Positions 1-59,988 of a DNA stretch of 59,988 nt are shown here, piece after piece. Positions within the stretch are counted from its first letter, which is position 1, and each line of letters begins with the position of its first letter. The stretch is from Gemmatimonadales bacterium. GTDB lineage: Bacteria > Gemmatimonadota > Gemmatimonadetes > Gemmatimonadales > GWC2-71-9. The position numbers were made by a program, and so were the translations under genes. The notes beneath the pieces were generated by a model. It searched no databases and was not told the origin of the DNA. It saw only the letters and a list, made by a program, of their open reading frames with translations. The stretch lies in the NCBI GenBank assembly GCA_037189525.1, contig JBBCJC010000013.1, positions 1 to 59,988 of the forward strand, read 5' to 3'.

Positions 1-3000
1 TCCCCGCATGCGCGGGGAACGCGGAAACGCCCTCGAGCCGAGCACGGCGCCGGCCGGTTCATCCCCGCATGCGCGGGGAACGCCACAAGAGTCGCGGCGG
101 CATTTCGGGACCTCCCGGTTCATCCCCGCATGCGCGGGGAACGCGCACGATGTCGTCGGCTGGTGTCTATCGCGCTCGGTTCATCCCCGCATGCGCGGGG
201 AACGCTCAGCCATCTCCGCCTCGGACGGCGCGGGGTCCGGTTCATCCCCGCATGCGCGGGGAACGCACGGGGTTACGCTCCAATCAGGTAGAGGTAATCG
301 GTTCATCCCCGCATGCGCGGGGAACGCCTTTGAGGTCAACTCCCGTCCGGCCCGAATTGCGGTTCATCCCCGCATGCGCGGGGAACGCCGCGTGCGCGAG
401 GTCCCCGCTGAGGGGGGACGCGGTTCATCCCCGCATGCGCGGGGAACGCCCGGTGTTACGATCTCGACCGTGATCCGCCGCCGGTTCATCCCCGCATGCG
501 CGGGGAACGCGGCCGCCACCCTCCTCGCCAGCGGATCACGCCCGGTTCATCCCCGCATGCGCGGGGAACGCGCGTTGCGCACCGTCGCGCTCATTTTGAT
601 TGCCGGTTCATCCCCGCATGCGCGGGGAACGCGGCGTACTGGCTCGCGCGGATGTTGGCGACTGCGGTTCATCCCCGCATGCGCGGGGAACGCTCGTTCC
701 GGTTGTCGGGGTGGCCGAGATCGACCGGTTCATCCCCGCATGCGCGGGGAACGCACCTTCAAATCTCCGCGCGCAACTTCGTAGGCCGGTTCATCCCCGC
801 ATGCGCGGGGAACGCGTCTCGATCACCATGTACCGGGGTGCCGCCAGCGGTTCATCCCCGCATGCGCGGGGAACGCCGGGTGCGCACGGTCCGCCGCCGT
901 TCGAAAGTCGGTTCATCCCCGCATGCGCGGGGAACGCGAATTGGCCGGCCCCTGTACCGATTACCACGGCGGTTCATCCCCGCATGCGCGGGGAACGCTG
1001 CCGCCACCTCGAGCGCGGCCACCGCGGCCCCGGTTCATCCCCGCATGCGCGGGGAACGCGATCGGGACGGCGTTGCAGGATTATGCGGTCGCGGTTCATC
1101 CCCGCATGCGCGGGGAACGCCCGATATCGGCACATTTTGCGCACCGACCGTCCGGTTCATCCCCGCATGCGCGGGGAACGCCCAGGTTGGCCATCGGCTC
1201 TGGGTTCGGGAGTCGGTTCATCCCCGCATGCGCGGGGAACGCGAGGCCCGACTGCTGCAGGAACTCCTCGACCTCGGTTCATCCCCGCATGCGCGGGGAA
1301 CGCCCGTCCACATGAGTGATATTGATCAGGTGTGGCGGTTCATCCCCGCATGCGCGGGGAACGCTGACGCGGCAGGGCGGGTGCATTTAGACGCTGCCGG
1401 TTCATCCCCGCATGCGCGGGGAACGCCGCAATTGGGTCGAATTGTACAACGGGTTTTCCGGTTCATCCCCGCATGCGCGGGGAACGCGAAAACTCTGAAG
1501 GAGGGATGACCGATGCGCGCTCGGTTCATCCCCGCATGCGCGGGGAACGCCTCCTCCGCCGAGCCCTCAAGGTGCGGCGGGCCGGTTCATCCCCGCATGC
1601 GCGGGGAACGCGAGCTAGAGCGAGCGGTCGATCGACTGGAAGCCGGTTCATCCCCGCATGCGCGGGGAACGCGCGGTAGAGGACCGATTCGAGCCCGAAC
1701 CGGACGGTTCATCCCCGCATGCGCGGGGAACGCGTGCTACCAGCTACACTAACCCCTAGTACTGCCGGTTCATCCCCGCATGCGCGGGGAACGCGCGGTA
1801 ATAGCAGGGCGGGCAATGATCAAACACGGTTCATCCCCGCATGCGCGGGGAACGCAGCAACGCTCGTAGGGTGGCGAGTGACGACGGCGGTTCATCCCCG
1901 CATGCGCGGGGAACGCAAGCGATTATACAGCTGAATACAGCATTTAGCCGGTTCATCCCCGCATGCGCGGGGAACGCACCCCGGCCGACAACGCGCTCGA
2001 GTCTGCCCGCGGTTCATCCCCGCATGCGCGGGGAACGCTCCCGGATTCGTGCCGGTAGGGGATACGCCCCCGGTTCATCCCCGCATGCGCGGGGAACGCA
2101 CCGGACGATTGATTGGCCCACGTCATGCGGCCGGTTCATCCCCGCATGCGCGGGGAACGCGTGTGCGCCGTCGTCGCCGTTGTCGGATGCCTCGGTTCAT
2201 CCCCGCATGCGCGGGGAACGCTGGTCGTTCGGACAGTGGATTGACCAGCAGGTCGGTTCATCCCCGCATGCGCGGGGAACGCGCCTTGCGTCGGAACGAA
2301 TGGAACGCCCGGCCCGGTTCATCCCCGCATGCGCGGGGAACGCGAGCCCAAGTAGGGCGGACGCGGATTGGATCGCGGTTCATCCCCGCATGCGCGGGGA
2401 ACGCGCCGATCGCGACGGAGCAGACCTGGCGGATCACGGTTCATCCCCGCATGCGCGGGGAACGCCACGACTCGATCAGGTGCGCGGCGGCCGTCGTCGG
2501 TTCATCCCCGCATGCGCGGGGAACGCTCCGACGCGCAACGCGCCGCCGATGCCGAGACCGGTTCATCCCCGCATGCGCGGGGAACGCTCCCTGGCCGAAC
2601 AGCAGGACCTCGTGGTCGACGGTTCATCCCCGCATGCGCGGGGAACGCGTGCTCGGTCGCCCTCGAGCGCAGGCCGAATACGGTTCATCCCCGCATGCGC
2701 GGGGAACGCGGATTCCCGATGACGTTCCCGGTTCCCTGCACCGGTTCATCCCCGCATGCGCGGGGAACGCCCTCGCCCTCGGTGGTGCCGATGTGTTCCA
2801 GGCGGTTCATCCCCGCATGCGCGGGGAACGCCTCGATCGGGGACGTATAATAGAGTTTGCCGGCGGTTCATCCCCGCATGCGCGGGGAACGCTACGACCA
2901 CTACCTCAAAGGGGAATGGGACGACGGTTCATCCCCGCATGCGCGGGGAACGCCTCGGTCTGGAATACCGGACTGACCGGCGTTCCGGTTCATCCCCGCA

Positions 3001-3319
3001 TGCGCGGGGAACGCACGAGAAGCACTCGCAAATGATGCGCTGGCGGCGGTTCATCCCCGCATGCGCGGGGAACGCCACGATGATACCTGTGTGCCCTGCT
3101 GTCGCGCCGGTTCATCCCCGCATGCGCGGGGAACGCTCGAGGTGATCGATCCGAAGCAGGTGCTCGGTCGGTTCATCCCCGCATGCGCGGGGAACGCCGG
3201 CCGATCTCCCATCGGGGTCGGCGTCGGAGCGGTTCATCCCCGCATGCGCGGGGAACGCATGCCTAGAATTTGGCGTAATGCGGTGACGATCGGTTCATCC
3301 CCGCATGCGCGGGGAACGC
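1..3319 (-). CRISPR. Type I-E CRISPR array: 55 repeats (first cut by window edge) and 54 spacers; repeat GCGTTCCCCGCGCATGCGGGGATGAACCG on the minus strand
   Basis: 29-bp repeat (+ strand CGGTTCATCCCCGCATGCGCGGGGAACGC) at 61-bp period; spacers are 32 nt except 33 nt (1365-1397) and 34 nt (1488-1521); resembles the E. coli I-E repeat; last repeat 3291-3319 adjoins the leader and cas2. Confidence 0.99.
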
Positions 3320-3379
3320 TCTAAAATGTAATGGCAATAGTATCAACGAGTTAACGACTTCGCCGACCACCTACCAGCT
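3320..3379 (-). promoter_or_regulatory. CRISPR leader with IHF-binding site
   Basis: AT-rich gap between the cas2 stop and the first repeat, ending ...TTTTAGA on the minus strand; TATCAACGAGTTA (3341-3353) matches the IHF consensus WATCAANNNNTTR. Confidence 0.85.
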
Positions 3380-53511: not shown

Positions 53512-54474
53512 CTACTGGGATTTCAGAAATGCCGATGCAAATTCCGTGACAGCCGCAGAACCAAGGAGAGACATGTGCGTCGTGTTCGGGATGATCGCGA
53601 GGCGGTTTGGCGATCGTAGCGATCCATCGAGACCGGCGTCGCGTTGTCCCCCGCCCAACAGTTTGTAGAACTCGACGACGTGTTCAGGGCGAATCGCGTC
53701 GGCATCCGCAAACACGAGCAGAGTCGGCGCCTTGATGTCGGCCACGGATGCCGACCAATCGTTGCTGCGATTGGCGAGCTCACCCGTCTTCCTGAACATG
53801 GTCTCCCAATTCACAGACGGATACAGTGATGCGAGCGGCGATTTGCTCACCTCGGCCGCGATCATCGGCGCCGCCGAGGGCATCTGCGCGAAGGCCTCGA
53901 GGACCTCCGGGTAGTAGCCGTCTGATCGAAACGCGGTCGAGATCACAATCAATTTGTCGACGAGTTGGGGATGGCGGATCGCGGTCTGAAGCGCGACGAG
54001 AGCGCCGCTCGAGTACCCCATCACACTGGCCTTCTCGATGCCGAGATGACCCATCAACGCGGCAACGTCATCGGCAAAGGCCTCGAACGACCACGGTCGG
54101 CCGCTGTCCTTGCTCAGGCCGTGGCCCCGGGTATGTATCGCAATGACCTTGTGCCCCTTGGCCATTTCCGCCAGGGGCGCACCGAACATCTCCGAAGGAG
54201 TGACACCCCCGTGCAGCATGATCAGGGGCGGGCCGTCGCCGTAGACCTCGTAGTACAACTCGACGTCGTTGACTTTGGCATAACCCTTCGATTCTGGTGT
54301 ACGCATGGCTTGTGCTCCCGCCGTCGTTGTGAGCGCGGACACGGCAAAGGCCGCGGCAATGAGGAGCAGCAATGGCCGCGTGGCCCTCGCACCGCTTGCC
54401 TTGCCGGTCATGGCGACCAGCAGCTCTATGCCCGTTTCGCGTTGGGCTTCAGGCTCAGGTCGGGACTTTCTCAT
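53512..54474 (-). CDS. Alpha/beta hydrolase (start may be 54411)
   Basis: LYYEVYGDGPPLIMLHGG, RGHG, GYSSG, AIIPNTTH. Confidence 0.88.
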   Translation of the reverse strand: MRKSRPEPEAQRETGIELLVAMTGKASGARATRPLLLLIAAAFAVSALTTTAGAQAMRTPESKGYAKVNDVELYYEVYGDGPPLIMLHGGVTPSEMFGAPLAEMAKGHKVIAIHTRGHGLSKDSGRPWSFEAFADDVAALMGHLGIEKASVMGYSSGALVALQTAIRHPQLVDKLIVISTAFRSDGYYPEVLEAFAQMPSAAPMIAAEVSKSPLASLYPSVNWETMFRKTGELANRSNDWSASVADIKAPTLLVFADADAIRPEHVVEFYKLLGGGQRDAGLDGSLRSPNRLAIIPNTTHMSLLGSAAVTEFASAFLKSQ

Positions 54475-54956
54475 GGTCTTACCAAGGCGACGAGAAGCTC
54501 GTCCAGCTGCTCGAACTGCTCACCTGCCGCACCCGTGCCTGAGCTACCGGAGGCGATGGCCTCGTCGAGAGCTTGCTTCGAAGGATAGAGTTCGGTCATG
54601 ACCAGGAGCGTCTTGCCGTCCTTTTCCTCGAAGGTCACGGTGGTAACGGCATTGTCGGCGCTCTCCTCGTTCGTCCAGACGATACGCGAGTGAGGCATCA
54701 CTTCGATATACCGGCCGAAGAACGCCATCGGCTCCTCGAAGTCAGGGTGGCTGAACACGAAACGGTACGTGCCACCCGTGCGGACATCGGCCTCGCAGGA
54801 AACGAAGGTTATTCCAAACGAGGGCGGCGTCCACCACCGCTTGAGCAACTCGGGCTTGGTCCAGGCCTCGAACACGAGGTGCGCAGGGCCGTTGAAGGTG
54901 CGCGTGACGACCAGCTCACGCTCGGATGTTCGCTCCACCGTCGTGGGGTTCTTCAT
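54471..54956 (-). CDS. SRPBCC / AHSA1-like ligand-binding protein
   Basis: RELVVTRTFNGPAHLVFEAWTKPELLKRWW, DVRTGGTYR. Confidence 0.92.
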   Translation of the reverse strand: MKNPTTVERTSERELVVTRTFNGPAHLVFEAWTKPELLKRWWTPPSFGITFVSCEADVRTGGTYRFVFSHPDFEEPMAFFGRYIEVMPHSRIVWTNEESADNAVTTVTFEEKDGKTLLVMTELYPSKQALDEAIASGSSGTGAAGEQFEQLDELLVALVRP

Positions 54957-55330
54957 GGGGTTGGGCTCACTTTCCTTTTTCGTTTTCCAACGACTCGTTT
55001 CTCCCGTTTCAATTCCTCGACGATCTCGTCCAACTCATCGAAGCGTGCAGCCCAGAGCTGGCGGTACCTCTCGATCCATGCCGCCTCTTCCTCCAGCCGG
55101 CGCACGCCGAGCGTGCACGTTCGTACTCGCCCGACCTTTTCCGTGGTGACGAGCCCTGCCTGCTCCAAGACACCGACGTGCTTCTTCATGCCCGTGAGAG
55201 TCATACGGAACGTCTCGGCAAGCTCCGTAATCGAAGCGTCCGCATGCCCTAGCCGCTCCAGAATGCCGCGTCGGGTGGCGTCCGAGAGCGCGGAGAACGA
55301 GGCATCCAGGTGGGCTTGATACTGAACCAT
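54953..55330 (-). CDS. ArsR/SmtB family transcriptional regulator
   Basis: FSALSDATRRGILERL, KHVGVLEQAGLV..EKVGRVR. Confidence 0.93.
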   Translation of the reverse strand: MVQYQAHLDASFSALSDATRRGILERLGHADASITELAETFRMTLTGMKKHVGVLEQAGLVTTEKVGRVRTCTLGVRRLEEEAAWIERYRQLWAARFDELDEIVEELKREKRVVGKRKRKVSPTP

Positions 55331-55366
55331 ATGGTTCAGTATATATCAGCAGAGCGGCGTGCGCAA
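55319..55366 (-). promoter_or_regulatory. Sigma70-type promoter with a 24-bp palindromic operator for the ArsR-SRPBCC operon
   Basis: TTGCGC (55366-55361), 17 nt, TATACT (55343-55338), then 7 nt to the ATG; perfect palindrome ATACTGAACCATATGGTTCAGTAT at 55319-55342. Confidence 0.8.
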
Positions 55367-55695
55367 GGAGAGGTGGGGTGAGGGCTGCACCCGCGGTACT
55401 TATTCGCGGACGTCCCGGGAGTAGAACCGGGGGTGGCACTCACCAGTCGACCCGTGCACCCGCGACCATCCAGGGACCGCGGTCGAGCGGGACGGGATCG
55501 TCGAGGAACTCGTGGCGCCAGATACACATCTGTATTTCCCATACGATTGCTGGCGGTGGGAAGCGTTCGCTACCGTCGTCTCGACTGATCAGGATCGTAG
55601 CTTCTGCTCGATCGAGCACGGCTGCGTAATAGGTGAAGCTCCGTGCATTAATCGCGTGGAGACCGATGAGTGCTGCAGCTTCCTCATACTAAGCG

Positions 55696-55831
55696 GTCTA
55701 ACGACTTTGGTGTTCAGCGGCAGCCGGAACGGAGCCGAGCGGCCGCGCCAACCTCCCCCCAACATGGGGGCGCGGCCGCGACTTCGGAAGAGGAACCCCG
55801 CCCGGCTGCCCGCTGCAAACCCTTATTAGGC
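55696..55831 (-). repeat. attC-like site 1 (distal, degenerate)
   Basis: + strand GTCTAAC...ATTAGGC, 136 bp; core G-to-A change and mismatched L arms. Confidence 0.85.
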
Positions 55832-55877
55832 AACCGTACGCGGAGACCTACACTTACCCTACCCATGTTCGGTGAAG

Positions 55878-56420
55878 CTACCGGCCACTTCGGTGAAGGT
55901 ACTCAAGCCAATCGGCGCTATCCCGAAGGGATCGAGCAAACACGACTTGCAGACGCGAGGCTTCCGCCTGCAGGGCGCTCCAATCCGGGGCATAATTCCC
56001 TCGCAGTGCAGCATGATACCCCGCACAATGAGCCGCAGCCCAAAGCAGATTCAGCGCTAAAAGAGTTTCGTTGCCACTTTCCGGTCCACGAAAGTCGGAA
56101 ATATAGGCCCGCACACCGCCAAGAAAGCGGCGTGCGCGGCGACGATGTACCGCGATGACCAGTCGAAGCCCATCATCCACCGTGTGACTCCACTCCTCGC
56201 CGCTAGTGCCGATCAGGGCCGTTGCCCGAGCGACCGTTCCCCTGATGAGGCGCCTGCGCTCGGGATCGGTCGTCTGCCAGCTATGATACTGGATCGGAGG
56301 TAAATCCTCGGGAGGGTTCCGCCAGCTGAGAACGCGCGGCCCAAAACCCTCAACCGCCACTAGGATGCGCTCCCGGAGCGGAAAACGGGCCGTCGGCCGC
56401 ACAAAGTCCACGCTGCTCAT
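55878..56420 (-). CDS. Cassette ORF A, hypothetical protein (180 aa)
   Basis: Single ORF filling the space between attC1 and attC2 in array orientation. Confidence 0.7.
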   Translation of the reverse strand: MSSVDFVRPTARFPLRERILVAVEGFGPRVLSWRNPPEDLPPIQYHSWQTTDPERRRLIRGTVARATALIGTSGEEWSHTVDDGLRLVIAVHRRRARRFLGGVRAYISDFRGPESGNETLLALNLLWAAAHCAGYHAALRGNYAPDWSALQAEASRLQVVFARSLRDSADWLEYLHRSGR

Positions 56421-56468
56421 GGTTGGGTTGTCATTCGGAGCGAGTGAATATGGGAGCCTAGTCAGGTT

Positions 56469-56609
56469 GCCTAACGACTTTGGTGTTCAGCGGCAGGCGC
56501 GCGCACGGAGCCGAGCGGCCGCACCAGCCTCCCAACCAACATGGGGGCGCGGCCGCGACTCCGCAAACCGGCACCCCGCGCGCCTGCCCGCTGCAACACC
56601 TTGTTAGGC
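56469..56609 (-). repeat. attC-like site 2
   Basis: GCCTAAC...GTTAGGC, 141 bp; L boxes GTTCAGC / GCTGCAAC on the + strand. Confidence 0.9.
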
Positions 56610-56610
56610 C

Positions 56611-57153
56611 TCACGATTGCTCGGTAACCGCTGCGACAAGACTCGGCCAGGGACAGGTCTCGTCCAGCCAACAAATGCTACTAACCGGATCAGCCCAGAT
56701 TCCGCGCTCAACAACGCTCACGAACTGCGGTGGTACCCAGGTGACCAAAAAATTTCGACCAGAGGAATCACACACCGACGGTACGGAAATAAAGGCAACC
56801 CAGGGCGGCGTATTGTACACGTCGAAGTAACCCTGTGTCTCCGCTTCCGCCGCCCCGTCACTTATCTCCGCATCGGGATAATAAAGCAGAAGCCGACCAC
56901 CCGCGGAACCGCGATGGGGGCGCGCCCGGCCACGCCTCAACTGGTGAACGCGGTTGAGGGCGACATGTTTAACCGCTTCCGCATAGGAGGGTTCCAAAGG
57001 ACGTGGTGCGAGGTCCGTCGTCCGCAAGCATGTCTTTGGAGCAGCGACGTCCACTCGAGGCTTACACCAAGCGACAACTTCCGCCAGCCGATCCCATAAG
57101 GGATCGAACGAGGCGGTACAATTGGGCTCAGTCTGGATATCTTCTTTACTCAT
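56611..57153 (-). CDS. Cassette ORF B, hypothetical protein (180 aa)
   Basis: Stop codon 1 nt from attC2; globular-looking core GRLLLYYPD..SDGAAEAETQGYFDVYNTPPW..LVTWVP. Confidence 0.8.
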   Translation of the reverse strand: MSKEDIQTEPNCTASFDPLWDRLAEVVAWCKPRVDVAAPKTCLRTTDLAPRPLEPSYAEAVKHVALNRVHQLRRGRARPHRGSAGGRLLLYYPDAEISDGAAEAETQGYFDVYNTPPWVAFISVPSVCDSSGRNFLVTWVPPQFVSVVERGIWADPVSSICWLDETCPWPSLVAAVTEQS

Positions 57154-57184
57154 GAAGCGGCCTAGTACCTGATGGTCGCGTGAG

Positions 57185-57321
57185 GCCTAACGACTTTGGG
57201 TTTCAGCGGCGGCCGGGCACGGAGCCGAGCGGCCGCGCTATCCTCAGCTAACATGAGGGCGCGGCCGCGACTCGGGAAGAGGAGCGTCGCCCGGCCGTCC
57301 GCCTGCAAACCCTTGTTAGGC
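57185..57321 (-). repeat. attC-like site 3
   Basis: GCCTAAC...GTTAGGC, 137 bp. Confidence 0.9.
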
Positions 57322-57327
57322 CGCTTG

Positions 57328-57945
57328 CTAGCGAAAGAGCCGGGCTAGCTCCGCCATCACATCGGGACCATACTCCGGATCCTTCCGGATGAGCAGAGCG
57401 CGTCGGCTGATCGGGTCCAGGGCGAGAAAAACCTCCGCTTCACCGTCCTGGAGGAAGAGCTTGGTGACCAACCAGGAACCAGCGGGTGACGTGGTGAACT
57501 CTCCGGCGACTGTCGAACCTGTCCCATCACCAGCTCCCCGCGTCAGGTTTTCGCCGAGAATGCCCACATCAAGAGTGAGGGAGTCAACGTACGGACGCTC
57601 TTGCCACGCGGCCCCCTCAGCAAGTGCTTGCTGTAACATCGCGAGAAAGTCGACCGGCCGGCGCTCGGCTCGCCCGCGCAAGATTCCGCGAGCGAAGCTG
57701 AATCGCGGCGAGTCAGCGGCGGATCGCCGCGGCCCGAGTTCTAGCTCGAGAGTCGCTGGGGTACTTCCCTCCAGGAGTGGTCGGAGCGTCCAGCGTCCCA
57801 GGCCGTCATCAGGGTGGTACTCTGCGACTAGTTCAACGGTGTCGACTACACTCGGAACCGGTCGTCGCGACGTTCTACGCAGCCTCAACACGAGCACAGT
57901 CCCGAGCAGAATAAGTAGGAGGACGGCGATAAGACTCTTTGTCAT
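57328..57945 (-). CDS. Cassette ORF C, hypothetical protein with N-terminal membrane anchor
   Basis: MTKSLIAVLLLILLGTVLVLRLRR; AAGGA RBS just inside the cassette start. Confidence 0.78.
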   Translation of the reverse strand: MTKSLIAVLLLILLGTVLVLRLRRTSRRPVPSVVDTVELVAEYHPDDGLGRWTLRPLLEGSTPATLELELGPRRSAADSPRFSFARGILRGRAERRPVDFLAMLQQALAEGAAWQERPYVDSLTLDVGILGENLTRGAGDGTGSTVAGEFTTSPAGSWLVTKLFLQDGEAEVFLALDPISRRALLIRKDPEYGPDVMAELARLFR

Positions 57946-57966
57946 AGGAGAATCCTTCCGCAAGCG

Positions 57967-58102
57967 GCCTAACGACTTTGGGTTTCAGCGGCAGCCGCGC
58001 TAGGAGCTGAGCGGCCGCGCCATCCTCCAGCAACATGGGGGCGCGGCCGCGACTCCGGAAGCGGAACTCTGCCCGGCTGTCCGCTGCAAACCCCTGTTAT
58101 AC
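57967..58102 (-). repeat. attC-like site 4
   Basis: GCCTAAC...GTTATAC, 136 bp; the toxin stop codon TAA lies inside the R'' box GTATAAC. Confidence 0.9.
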
Positions 58103-58396
58103 CGCATCCGTAGGAAGCGGAAACAGACGCGCCCCATGGAAAACCGTGAGAATATGCACGACGTCGGGGCCGACAAGGTAGACAATTCGGTAAGCACCGA
58201 TGAGCACTTCGCGAACGTCGGCTCGGTCGAGCTCCGGAACGATGCGGCCAGTTTCAGGAAACTGCTGCAGGTGATCTGCGGCGGCGAACAGACGCTCGAC
58301 GTGCAAGGCTGCATACCGTGGGGAACTGCGAGAGATATAAGACCGGATGGCTTCGAGATTCTCGATCGCCCGTTCCGTCCAGATGATGCGGGTCAT
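58097..58396 (-). CDS. RelE/ParE family type II toxin
   Basis: IIWTERAIENLEAIRSYI...FPETGRIVPE...REV..GAYRIVY...ILTVFHGAR. Confidence 0.92.
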   Translation of the reverse strand: MTRIIWTERAIENLEAIRSYISRSSPRYAALHVERLFAAADHLQQFPETGRIVPELDRADVREVLIGAYRIVYLVGPDVVHILTVFHGARLFPLPTDAV

Positions 58397-58578
58397 GGGC
58401 GACCCAACAACCGCCGTTTTGCCTCTTCGTGGGACACCACTTGGCCGGCCTCCACCTGCCGAAGCCCGGCCTCGATTTCGGCCAGAAAATAGAGCCGCTC
58501 CATGGCTTCCTCGACCGACGTCTCGGCCGGAAGGCGCTTGATGACTTCCAGAACTTGGTCTCGGGTGGTCGGTGTCAT
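58393..58578 (-). CDS. Putative cognate antitoxin (61 aa)
   Basis: LPAETSVEEAMERLY...IEAGLRQVEAGQVVSHEEAK; ATGA overlap with the toxin; GGAG RBS. Confidence 0.85.
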   Translation of the reverse strand: MTPTTRDQVLEVIKRLPAETSVEEAMERLYFLAEIEAGLRQVEAGQVVSHEEAKRRLLGRP

Positions 58579-58606
58579 GGGACAAACTCCATCAGGGTGC
58601 CACCGA

Positions 58607-58635
58607 AGAGTAGACCGACTCACAAGGAGGGGCAA
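58607..58635 (-). promoter_or_regulatory. Internal promoter of the toxin-antitoxin cassette
   Basis: TTGCCC, 17 nt, TACTCT upstream of the antitoxin. Confidence 0.6.
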
Positions 58636-58661
58636 CCCAGGAGGATTGGGGAGTGGATGCG

Positions 58662-58799
58662 GTATAACGACTCTGGTGTTCAGCGGCAGGCGCTCACGGA
58701 GCCGAGCGGCCGCGCCATCCTCCAATCAACATGAGGGTGCGGCCGCGACTTCGCAAACCGGCCCTCCGCGCGCCTGCCCGCTGCAACACCCTGTTAGGC
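58662..58799 (-). repeat. attC-like site 5
   Basis: GTATAAC...GTTAGGC, 138 bp. Confidence 0.9.
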
Positions 58800-58816
58800 A
58801 GTAGGTACGACAAACG

Positions 58817-59362
58817 CTAATGCTGCATCCCATACTCGATACGAACAACGCGCCATTGTCCAGCACGATGCTGGACCTCGACAAACACTTCGCTGCCGTG
58901 ATCAATTCGCACGGGATAGACCGCGAGGCGGACAACGAGAGCGCTATCGCCTCGCCAGCTAACGGGCGCGAGCACGATAAGTGGGCCACCCGGACGCAAG
59001 GTGCGGCCATCTTGGGCGACAATGCGTCCGGAATCGACAACAGCCAATTTGGGATATATCGCACGAAGACTGGGGAGTTCCATGAGATCAAGGAGTTCAA
59101 TCGGAGGAGATAGGCGGCCATCGAGGCGGCGGAGCGGCTGGTAATGTGTTGTGGACAGAATACGTGGATCCATCAATTCGATCTGCTGCGAACTCTGAAG
59201 CCATCGGAGGACGGAATCGAGCGCCGCAGAGCGGACCTCACGCTCAATGCACCACATGACTGCACATCTCTGCGACGTGCGCGCAGGTCTCTCTTGGGCA
59301 AGGATCGTCGTCGGGGTTCCTGCTAGGAGTAGTATCGCAAGGAGGCTGAGTGCTTGAAGCAC
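58817..59362 (-). CDS. Cassette ORF E, secreted hypothetical protein
   Basis: Signal peptide ending ..TILA-Q; AGGAG RBS immediately after the R' box; GTG start. Confidence 0.78.
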   Translation of the reverse strand: MLQALSLLAILLLAGTPTTILAQERPARTSQRCAVMWCIEREVRSAALDSVLRWLQSSQQIELMDPRILSTTHYQPLRRLDGRLSPPIELLDLMELPSLRAIYPKLAVVDSGRIVAQDGRTLRPGGPLIVLAPVSWRGDSALVVRLAVYPVRIDHGSEVFVEVQHRAGQWRVVRIEYGMQH

Positions 59363-59378
59363 GAGGATACTCCTATCT

Positions 59379-59518
59379 GCCTAACGACTTTGGGTTTCAG
59401 CGGCAGGCGTGCTCACGGAGCCGAGCGGCCGCGCCAGCCTCCAACCAACATGGGGGCGCGGCCGCGACTCCGGAAGAGGTAGCCCGTCGCGCCTGCCCGC
59501 TGCAAACCCCTGTTAGGA
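59379..59518 (-). repeat. attC-like site 6
   Basis: GCCTAAC...GTTAGGA, 140 bp. Confidence 0.9.
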
Positions 59519-59545
59519 CGCTAGGAGCGACATCGCCGTGCGGAC

Positions 59546-59947
59546 CTAGCTACCCCGGCCATAGCCGGCCAATCGGCGCCAACGTGAATCAAAAATGATC
59601 GTCCCACCGAACGCCACGCCCGGAAGGAAGTCGCTCATGGGTTGAACAAACCAGTAGGGGCCTGCTCGAACAACGGCGACGGCTCCTTTATGCGGGTTCA
59701 AAACACCGTCTTTGTCGTATTCGGCCGCCGCACGAGCGCAGATCGAGGCATTCCGTACCAAGGCAACACGCGAGGGGGGCACTCTGGTCATACCATAGTC
59801 CGACCGCCGGTCGTCATTGACCGAGTCTGGCGACGAAGCGATCTGTCGCACCGTGACCGCAAAGGAATCTGCCGCCGCGCCGGATCCGCAGCCATGCGCT
59901 GCGGGGTTAGTCAAGAGAACAAGAGAGACAAACATCGTGCCCACCAT
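59546..59947 (-). CDS. Cassette ORF F, small probably secreted hypothetical protein
   Basis: Hydrophobic N-terminus, two Cys, GAGGGG RBS-like sequence; the cassette's other boundary is outside the window. Confidence 0.7.
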   Translation of the reverse strand: MVGTMFVSLVLLTNPAAHGCGSGAAADSFAVTVRQIASSPDSVNDDRRSDYGMTRVPPSRVALVRNASICARAAAEYDKDGVLNPHKGAVAVVRAGPYWFVQPMSDFLPGVAFGGTIIFDSRWRRLAGYGRGS

Positions 59948-59988
59948 GGGTGCCCCCTCTCAACTGATCACCAGAACAGCGCCGCGCA

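Follow-up and report, generated by a model that had tools for sequence, protein, structure and literature searches.

Long, homogeneous attC sites at the probable distal end of a large sedentary integron in a Gemmatimonadales chromosome

We analyzed a 59,988-nt stretch of DNA (the window) from a Gemmatimonadales bacterium (GenBank assembly GCA_037189525.1, contig JBBCJC010000013.1), which is the entire contig C13 of a 16-contig, 4.65-Mb genome; its other contigs are likewise denoted by C and a number. At the right end of the window, six related repeats on the + strand separate six unrelated sets of open reading frames (ORFs), all read from the minus strand (Table 1). The repeats are found at the positions given by an initial annotation of the sequence, which had also described the unrelated minus-strand ORFs between them. 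We conclude, with a probability of about 0.93, that the repeats are attC sites and that the cassettes they bound make up the distal end of a large sedentary chromosomal integron. This integron is of the inverted-integrase type and has a long, genus-specific attC. There are two arrays, and the window contains the six most distal cassettes of one of them.

The six window copies have a mean column identity of 83% in alignment. Their left ends follow RYYYAAC (mostly GCCTAAC or GTCTAAC) and their right ends GTTRRRY (mostly GTTAGGC), the box types initially annotated, with exceptions at the right ends of copy 1 (ATTAGGC) and copy 4 (GTTATAC) and at the left end of copy 5, the partner of the latter (GTATAAC). 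A covariance model of this family scored the window copies at 136 to 158 bits on the + strand and at 13 to 23 bits on the minus strand. The same model returned no further copy left of position 55696, in the remaining 55 kb of the window, even at an E-value of 10; conserved chromosomal genes lie there, in line with the proposal that this is the distal end of the array. Copy 1 has two mismatches in its L stem and combines a subfamily-A left arm with a subfamily-B right arm. Such mosaics of two attC subfamilies, present in copy 1 and a few others, suggest gene conversion between sites.

The end boxes of these repeats match across the ORFs rather than within each repeat. The crossover of an integron takes place inside one end box, so that in an array the neighboring cassette supplies the outer letters of the box. 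In 50 pairs of neighboring full copies, we compared the variable positions of the core and the first two positions of the flank. The right end of one copy is complementary to the left end of the next at 0.94 to 0.98, while the two ends of one copy match at only 0.40 to 0.82 and randomly paired ends at 0.33 to 0.83. Inside the window, 12 to 14 of 15 letters match across the ORF in four of five pairs, including the unusual GTTATAC and GTATAAC boxes around one cassette. This matching across ORFs is a hallmark of integron cassettes, and it bears out the cassette architecture that had been read from the sequence at the outset.

Table 1. Predicted features of the array end in the window and of its chromosomal flank.
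Feature	Position	Strand	Basis
attC copy 1, last (distal) site of array	55696..55831	+	Alignment; covariance model, 138 bits
attC copy 2	56469..56609	+	Alignment; fold z −7.3; covariance model, 150 bits
attC copy 3	57185..57321	+	Alignment; covariance model, 136 bits
attC copy 4, ParE stop codon in right-end core GTTATAC	57967..58102	+	Fold z −5.7; covariance model, 144 bits
attC copy 5, left-end core GTATAAC pairs with copy 4 right end across the toxin–antitoxin cassette	58662..58799	+	Covariance model, 158 bits
attC copy 6	59379..59518	+	Alignment; covariance model, 146 bits
Cassette ORF, 180 aa, without family	55878..56420	−	Pfam, NCBIfam, PADLOC
Cassette ORF, 180 aa, without family	56611..57153	−	ORF call, Pfam
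Cassette ORF, 206 aa, hydrophobic N-terminus, without family	57328..57948	−	Pfam, NCBIfam
ParE/RelE-family toxin of toxin–antitoxin cassette	58097..58399	−	Pfam PF05016, E 1.1e-18
Partner ORF, 62 aa, likely antitoxin, overlaps toxin start	58393..58581	−	NF050811 RelB/ParD, E 0.0012, 19 bits, below cut-off; position
Cassette ORF, 181 aa, signal-peptide-like start, without family	58817..59362	−	Pfam, NCBIfam
ORF of cassette running past window end, 133 aa	59546..59947	−	ORF call
Stretch between last attC and first flanking gene, possibly a remnant cassette	55331..55695		Without attC
Chromosomal flank: ArsR-type HTH regulator and AHSA1/SRPBCC protein	54471..55330	−	Pfam

Most of the cargo of the window could not be assigned to a family: five of the seven cassette ORFs had no match in Pfam, NCBIfam or PADLOC. 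The ORF at 56611–57153 has nine metagenome homologues at 40 to 60% identity and is therefore a real conserved gene. The toxin–antitoxin (TA) cassette proposed by the initial annotation is recovered as a ParE toxin, which scores 27.4 bits against TIGR02385, just below the cut-off of 27.9, together with a weakly RelB/ParD-like partner. Stop codons in or next to a core had also been pointed out; one lies within a core (58097–58099) and another one base off a core (56611–56613). Cassette interiors have a G+C content of 59.8%, compared to 65.5% for the genome. When used as queries, the proteins of the 55878..56420 and 56611..57153 cassettes were each found in 0 of 21 congeners, while the flanking AHSA1 protein, the control query, was matched in 18 of them.

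We searched all contigs of the genome with a profile (nhmmer) of the six window copies and counted matches of at least 100 bits as full copies. There were 72 hits, and 60 of these were full copies (17 on C7, 14 on C12, 8 on C4, 6 each on C13 and C1, 4 each on C16 and C2, and 1 on C5). Successive full copies are spaced by 598 to 3337 nt (median 840), the copies keep to one strand per contig, and contigs C4, C7, C12 and C16 consist of array only. Outside the arrays, two full copies and some ten that are partial or decayed are found at C2:627543, C2:1021204–1024417, C5:157847–168202 and C5:1125383, where they resemble clusters of attC sites lacking integron-integrases (CALINs; Cury 2016, Neron 2022). 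A genome-wide count had been suggested as a check on whether the copies are scattered; of the 60 full copies, 58 fall into arrays that run in a single direction, on C1, C2, C4, C7, C12, C13 and C16.

This distribution bears on the alternative that the repeats are self-spreading palindromes unrelated to an integrase, similar to repetitive extragenic palindromes or miniature inverted-repeat transposable elements. The copies are indeed palindromic and abundant, and the few scattered or decayed ones would be expected of such elements. They would not be expected to form one-directional arrays, to have end boxes that pair across an ORF instead of within the repeat, to adjoin an integrase gene and attI with one of their arrays, or to be missing from among the housekeeping genes of the window's other 55 kb. 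We give this explanation next to no credence. The 60 full copies, the homogeneity of the family, the chromosomal flanks and its retention in all 21 congeners identify a sedentary chromosomal integron, for which site thresholds of more than 10 to 19 attC sites have been used (PMC9024848).

The repeats fold as attC sites would. Single-stranded DNA folding of two copies, on both strands, yielded −42 to −53 kcal/mol (z-scores of −5.4 to −7.3), and 0 of 200 dinucleotide shuffles of each folded as well. When the 60 full copies (135 to 141 nt) are aligned, with a mean column identity of 86%, standard pairs fill 96.6% of 2219 pair cells, compared to 33 to 48% when the 3′ partners are slid by 1 to 3 columns. 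The spacer measures 6 nt versus 2 nt, and the central part holds the GCGGCCGCGCC/GGCGCGGCCGC stem, whose 11 pairs are formed in 99.2% of cells. Compensatory changes occur at four L-stem pairs, in 20, 20, 17 and 5 copies.

The initial annotation was right about the imperfect palindromes and the central stem, and wrong in assigning one unpaired base to the L-box pairs. All 60 copies carry two single-nucleotide bulges on the 3′ arm of the + strand, separated by 6 bp. The one closer to the R box is always C; the other is C in 51 copies and T in 9. A G directly follows AAC at the 5′ end of the + strand in 60 of 60 copies, which is a feature reported for the R′ box (Bouvier 2009, PMC2727003).

We located an integrase gene, intI, on the minus strand at C2:2379–3343, beside three attC copies (C2:194, 859 and 1487). 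It matches TIGR02249 in two frames, with 130 bits over model positions 1–139 and 227 bits over positions 142–314, where the cut-off for one protein is 265 bits. The C-terminal part of IntI aligns to residues 146–318 of VchIntIA (2A3V) with an E-value of 5e-46 and without notable gaps. The alignment spans the IntI-specific segment, the stretch that XerA, XerC and XerD leave uncovered. A search for a tyrosine recombinase with this insertion had been put forward at the outset, and it led to C2.

The integrase gene, the cassette ORFs and the attC top strand all share one strand, which is the inverted-integrase layout. Read along the minus strand of C2, the intI stop codon is followed, after some 75 nt outside any repeat, by a GTTAGAC core; next come the first cassette ORF, whose start resembles that of a lipoprotein, and the first attC. 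The first cassette meets non-attC sequence at about C2:2288–2305, no more than 90 nt from the intI stop. Its 12 letters beyond the crossover are complementary to the beginning of its attC, and by sequence this position is therefore an attI–cassette junction. All six congeneric loci compared have the same arrangement, with 55 to 95 nt between the intI stop and a GTTRRRY core. The exact 12-nt attI-side word of C2 is absent from these loci, and their attI regions differ in sequence. A short, semi-conserved word of the GATTAT/GATATC-CTTGC type stands just after the intI stop in C2 and in several congeners (loci L110–L115); within the attI region, it could be a promoter or an element bound by the integrase.

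The 3′-arm bulges, the G after AAC and the attI junction agree in marking the + strand of the window as the probable recombined (bottom) strand, on which every copy would be cut at its left end. The polarity of the array therefore places intI and attI to the right of the window. The initial annotation had expected them on that side; the direction holds, both by polarity and by the overlaps of the right end with array contigs, and the array may run on to the intI of C2 or to a second, integrase-less end.

These features point to a mechanism whereby the integrase would act on the folded + strand of each attC, excising and inserting cassettes. On the + strand, the cut would fall at the left-end RYYYAA|C of every copy, and the bulged bases of the 3′ arm (C, and C or T) would serve as the extrahelical bases that set strand choice. 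The cassettes would be read from the minus strand, co-directionally with intI. Both arrays would now be frozen in this strain, whose intI lacks 7 nt, unless an integrase comes in trans.

The two frames of intI overlap by four bases at C2:2912–2915, and two model positions are missing between them. One contig each from sequencing runs of two other studies, X2 and X4 (one sample) from the first and X6 from the second, carries an intI about 98.7% identical to this one, with seven extra letters behind C2:2911. In the minus-strand frame, these letters restore the two missing residues, Val-Lys, of the usual LRVKD box, and the frame stays open. Run X1, which is probably the source sample, contains a 31.7-kb contig identical to C2:1598–3500, at a depth of about 108, and it also lacks the seven letters. 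Judged by these sequences, this population has a broken intI, and close relatives have an intact one. Among the other congeners, 18 of 21 have an IntI match with an E-value of 1e-30 or better, and in 13 a match in one uninterrupted frame exceeds the cut-off; two or three intI copies are present in several.

It could be argued that the frameshift is an assembly error, or is bypassed, and that the integron is active in this strain. The very uniform attC copies, the intact appearance of the cassettes and the existence of near-identical intI alleles without the gap would all fit an active system. The independent assembly of X1 agrees with C2, however, which, with X1 as the probable source sample, excludes a slip of the assembler but not a variant of the population; a 7-nt gap is also untypical of read errors, and split intI genes recur in three congeners (G002, G010 and G015). 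We regard current activity by this route as highly improbable, and the array is likely frozen in this strain.

The contigs of the other runs add detail on the junctions. Those of X2 and X4 end at C2:2293–2295, the attI junction, and this is suggestive of cassette heterogeneity there, although a contig end by itself proves nothing. The contigs of X2, X4 and X6 cover attC copies and the left flank and do not cover cassette interiors, which is not evidence that the cassettes are absent. Joints in X1 that skip ahead or go back along the array were considered as excision products and rejected; their sides are short (most at most 30), they fall within repeats and they are probably repeat-derived.

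Overlaps of 141 nt between contig ends join the right end of C13 to C4 or C12, C4 to C16, C1 to C7, and C7 to C2 or C11. There are two distal ends, on C13 at 55696 and on C1 at 11175, and two proximal ends, on C2 with intI and on C11 without it. The distal end on C1 (C1:8404–11175) shows progressive attC decay, with copies of 105, 76 and 70 bits, compared to 133 bits for the last copy of the window. C11:1–200 is 99.5% identical to C2:1–200, which is one cassette end, and past the core C11 shares 11 nt and a 14-nt word with the attI region of C2 (C11:1–520). The shared word holds TATAAT on the strand opposite to the cassettes. No IntI-like reading frame was found in the first 6 kb of C11.

The array of the window may accordingly be the second one, in effect a large CALIN that terminates on C11, at the attI-like site without an integrase, and that would depend on IntI in trans. 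The paired distal and proximal ends in the contig graph, the near-identity of C11 and C2 at a cassette end with no IntI-like frame beside it, and the two or three intI copies of several congeners speak for such an arrangement, while the 141-nt overlaps allow the window array to continue to C2 equally. We put its chances a little short of even. It would alter the platform of the cassettes, and not their identity as cassettes of an integron. The left flank of the window array, including the stretch at 55331–55695, and the start of copy 1 (up to 55750) recur at about 97% identity in contigs of another study; this array end is therefore fixed in the chromosome of related strains.

Several observations weigh against our identification of a large sedentary integron, or narrow what it can claim. 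Every attC model that we used was built from copies of this genome. The compensatory changes in the L stem come largely from two subfamilies (36 and 20 copies) and so represent few independent events. The contig overlaps fit a window array that leads to the intI of C2 or to C11. The integrase gene is broken here, and therefore present activity in this strain is unlikely. In four runs, examined as contigs only, we saw neither excision circles nor alternative junctions. A cassette promoter was not identified either, and no scan was aimed at the promoter Pc. Finally, the first bulge holds a C where the Vibrio cholerae repeats (VCRs) and class 1 sites keep a conserved G.

Assays of VCR sites found that a G-to-C change at the first extrahelical base cost only 1.2- to 2.7-fold (PMC2727003), and a search of Nivina 2016 (PMC5027507) for bulged-base identity found no passage. 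We folded ten sites of relatives, and nine of them have two bulges six pairs apart on the 3′ arm, with a C nearer the R box; the tenth (60 nt, z-score of −1.3) did not take this shape. Because this C is common to many relatives, it is a trait of the clade and not a peculiarity of the array.

The attC family is conserved across the genus. The model gave hits in 21 of 21 congeners, with a best E-value in each of 1e-20 to 1e-40 and listed matches of 103 to 160 bits, while outside the genus 9 of 19 genomes from its family or order gave hits, all of them weak (E-values of 1e-8 to 1e-17). The repeat is thus as lineage-specific as had been supposed. The closest relatives of IntI are from Gemmatimonadota metagenome-assembled genomes (MAGs), with a best identity of 66%. 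We applied a model of the 60 full copies to 80 loci that surround relatives of IntI. In 23 of these, attC-like sites lie downstream of intI on the strand opposite to the model, which is the inverted-integrase layout, and in 5 they lie upstream on the strand of intI, which is the classical layout. In both layouts, the strand of the model behaves as the bottom strand.

A more specific account is that the cassettes are made within the lineage, where some machinery would attach a single fixed attC to each, and that the IntI clade reading this attC has a C/C(T) bulge code instead of a G/T one. This would fit a 137-nt attC with a near-invariant branched center and C-type bulges in 21 of 21 congeners, cargo that is not shared between them and the keeping by the genus of at least two platform ends, one of them integrase-less. 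We consider this account improbable.

Based on its RpoB sequence, the host belongs to Gemmatimonadales. The protein shares 83% identity with its counterpart in a Gemmatimonadales MAG and 71% with the one on a Gemmatimonadota chromosome, compared to 58% for a cyanobacterium, 47 to 52% for an acidobacterium and 42 to 51% for an Eisenbacteria MAG, and it supports the Gemmatimonadota-like host that had been named as probable from the sequence. At the left end of the contig, the window carries an array of clustered regularly interspaced short palindromic repeats (CRISPR) at 56–3320, with about 54 copies of a 29-nt repeat at a 61-nt period. At the Rfam gathering score, the whole window had no matches, including at the CRISPR repeat. 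We know of no attC family in Rfam.

The array adds a well-documented large sedentary integron to Gemmatimonadota, a phylum of soil and sludge in which integrons have been listed and little described. Its distinctive features are a natural 7-nt on/off polymorphism of intI, a second, integrase-less platform end and C-type bulges. They offer a non-proteobacterial test bed for the co-evolution of attC bulge identity with the integrase and for the origin of cassettes. The general understanding of integrons is unchanged by this array.

Integrons of this layout in Gemmatimonadota have already been published, and the phylum is among those recorded as integron-bearing (PMC8618304). Gemmatimonadota is not among the taxa for which Ghaly et al. 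2021 built specific attC models (PMC8352920), and literature listings, together with passages of the papers cited here, yielded no paper that describes the attC family of this genus. The inverted-integrase group and its layout have been named (PMC3575428, PMC13323075), with Treponema denticola as the type. As in that group, intI and the cassettes run in the same direction in the order intI, attI, cassettes, and IntI is 55 to 61% identical to records from Treponema, Spirochaetaceae, Chlorobiaceae, Synechococcus and Planctomycetota. The present integron differs in its host phylum and in an attC of 135 to 141 nt with a branched, highly conserved center.

Closer to the host, Gemmatirosa kalamazoonensis KBS708 (NZ_CP007129.1, a 1.1-Mb replicon) belongs to the same phylum and family-level neighborhood, and its integron is reported to be among the largest 'plasmid' integrons (Neron et al. 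2022, PMC9024848). Its IntI is 59.6% identical over 90% of the C-terminal part, and at least 29 attC-like hits, forming one homogeneous family, all lie downstream of intI on the strand opposite to the model. Unlike the sites described here, those of Gemmatirosa are 96 to 98 nt long (one is 130 nt) and score 20 to 38 bits with the model of this genus; they form another attC family, on a secondary replicon.

The V. cholerae integron with its VCRs is similar in its large array, its homogeneous, long and genus-wide attC, its hypervariable cargo and its TA cassettes. In Vibrio, intI is divergent from the cassettes. In both systems the recombined strand has its bulged bases on the 3′ arm, where the VCR has three extrahelical bases (G16, T20 and T24; PMC2727003) and the sites of this genome have two. 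CALINs, by comparison, are described as degraded integrons with fewer sites (PMC9024848). The small clusters and solo copies on C2 and C5 resemble them, as would possibly the whole array of the window if it ends on C11. The window array is unlike them in its intact, uniform sites and in the presence of intI elsewhere in the genome.

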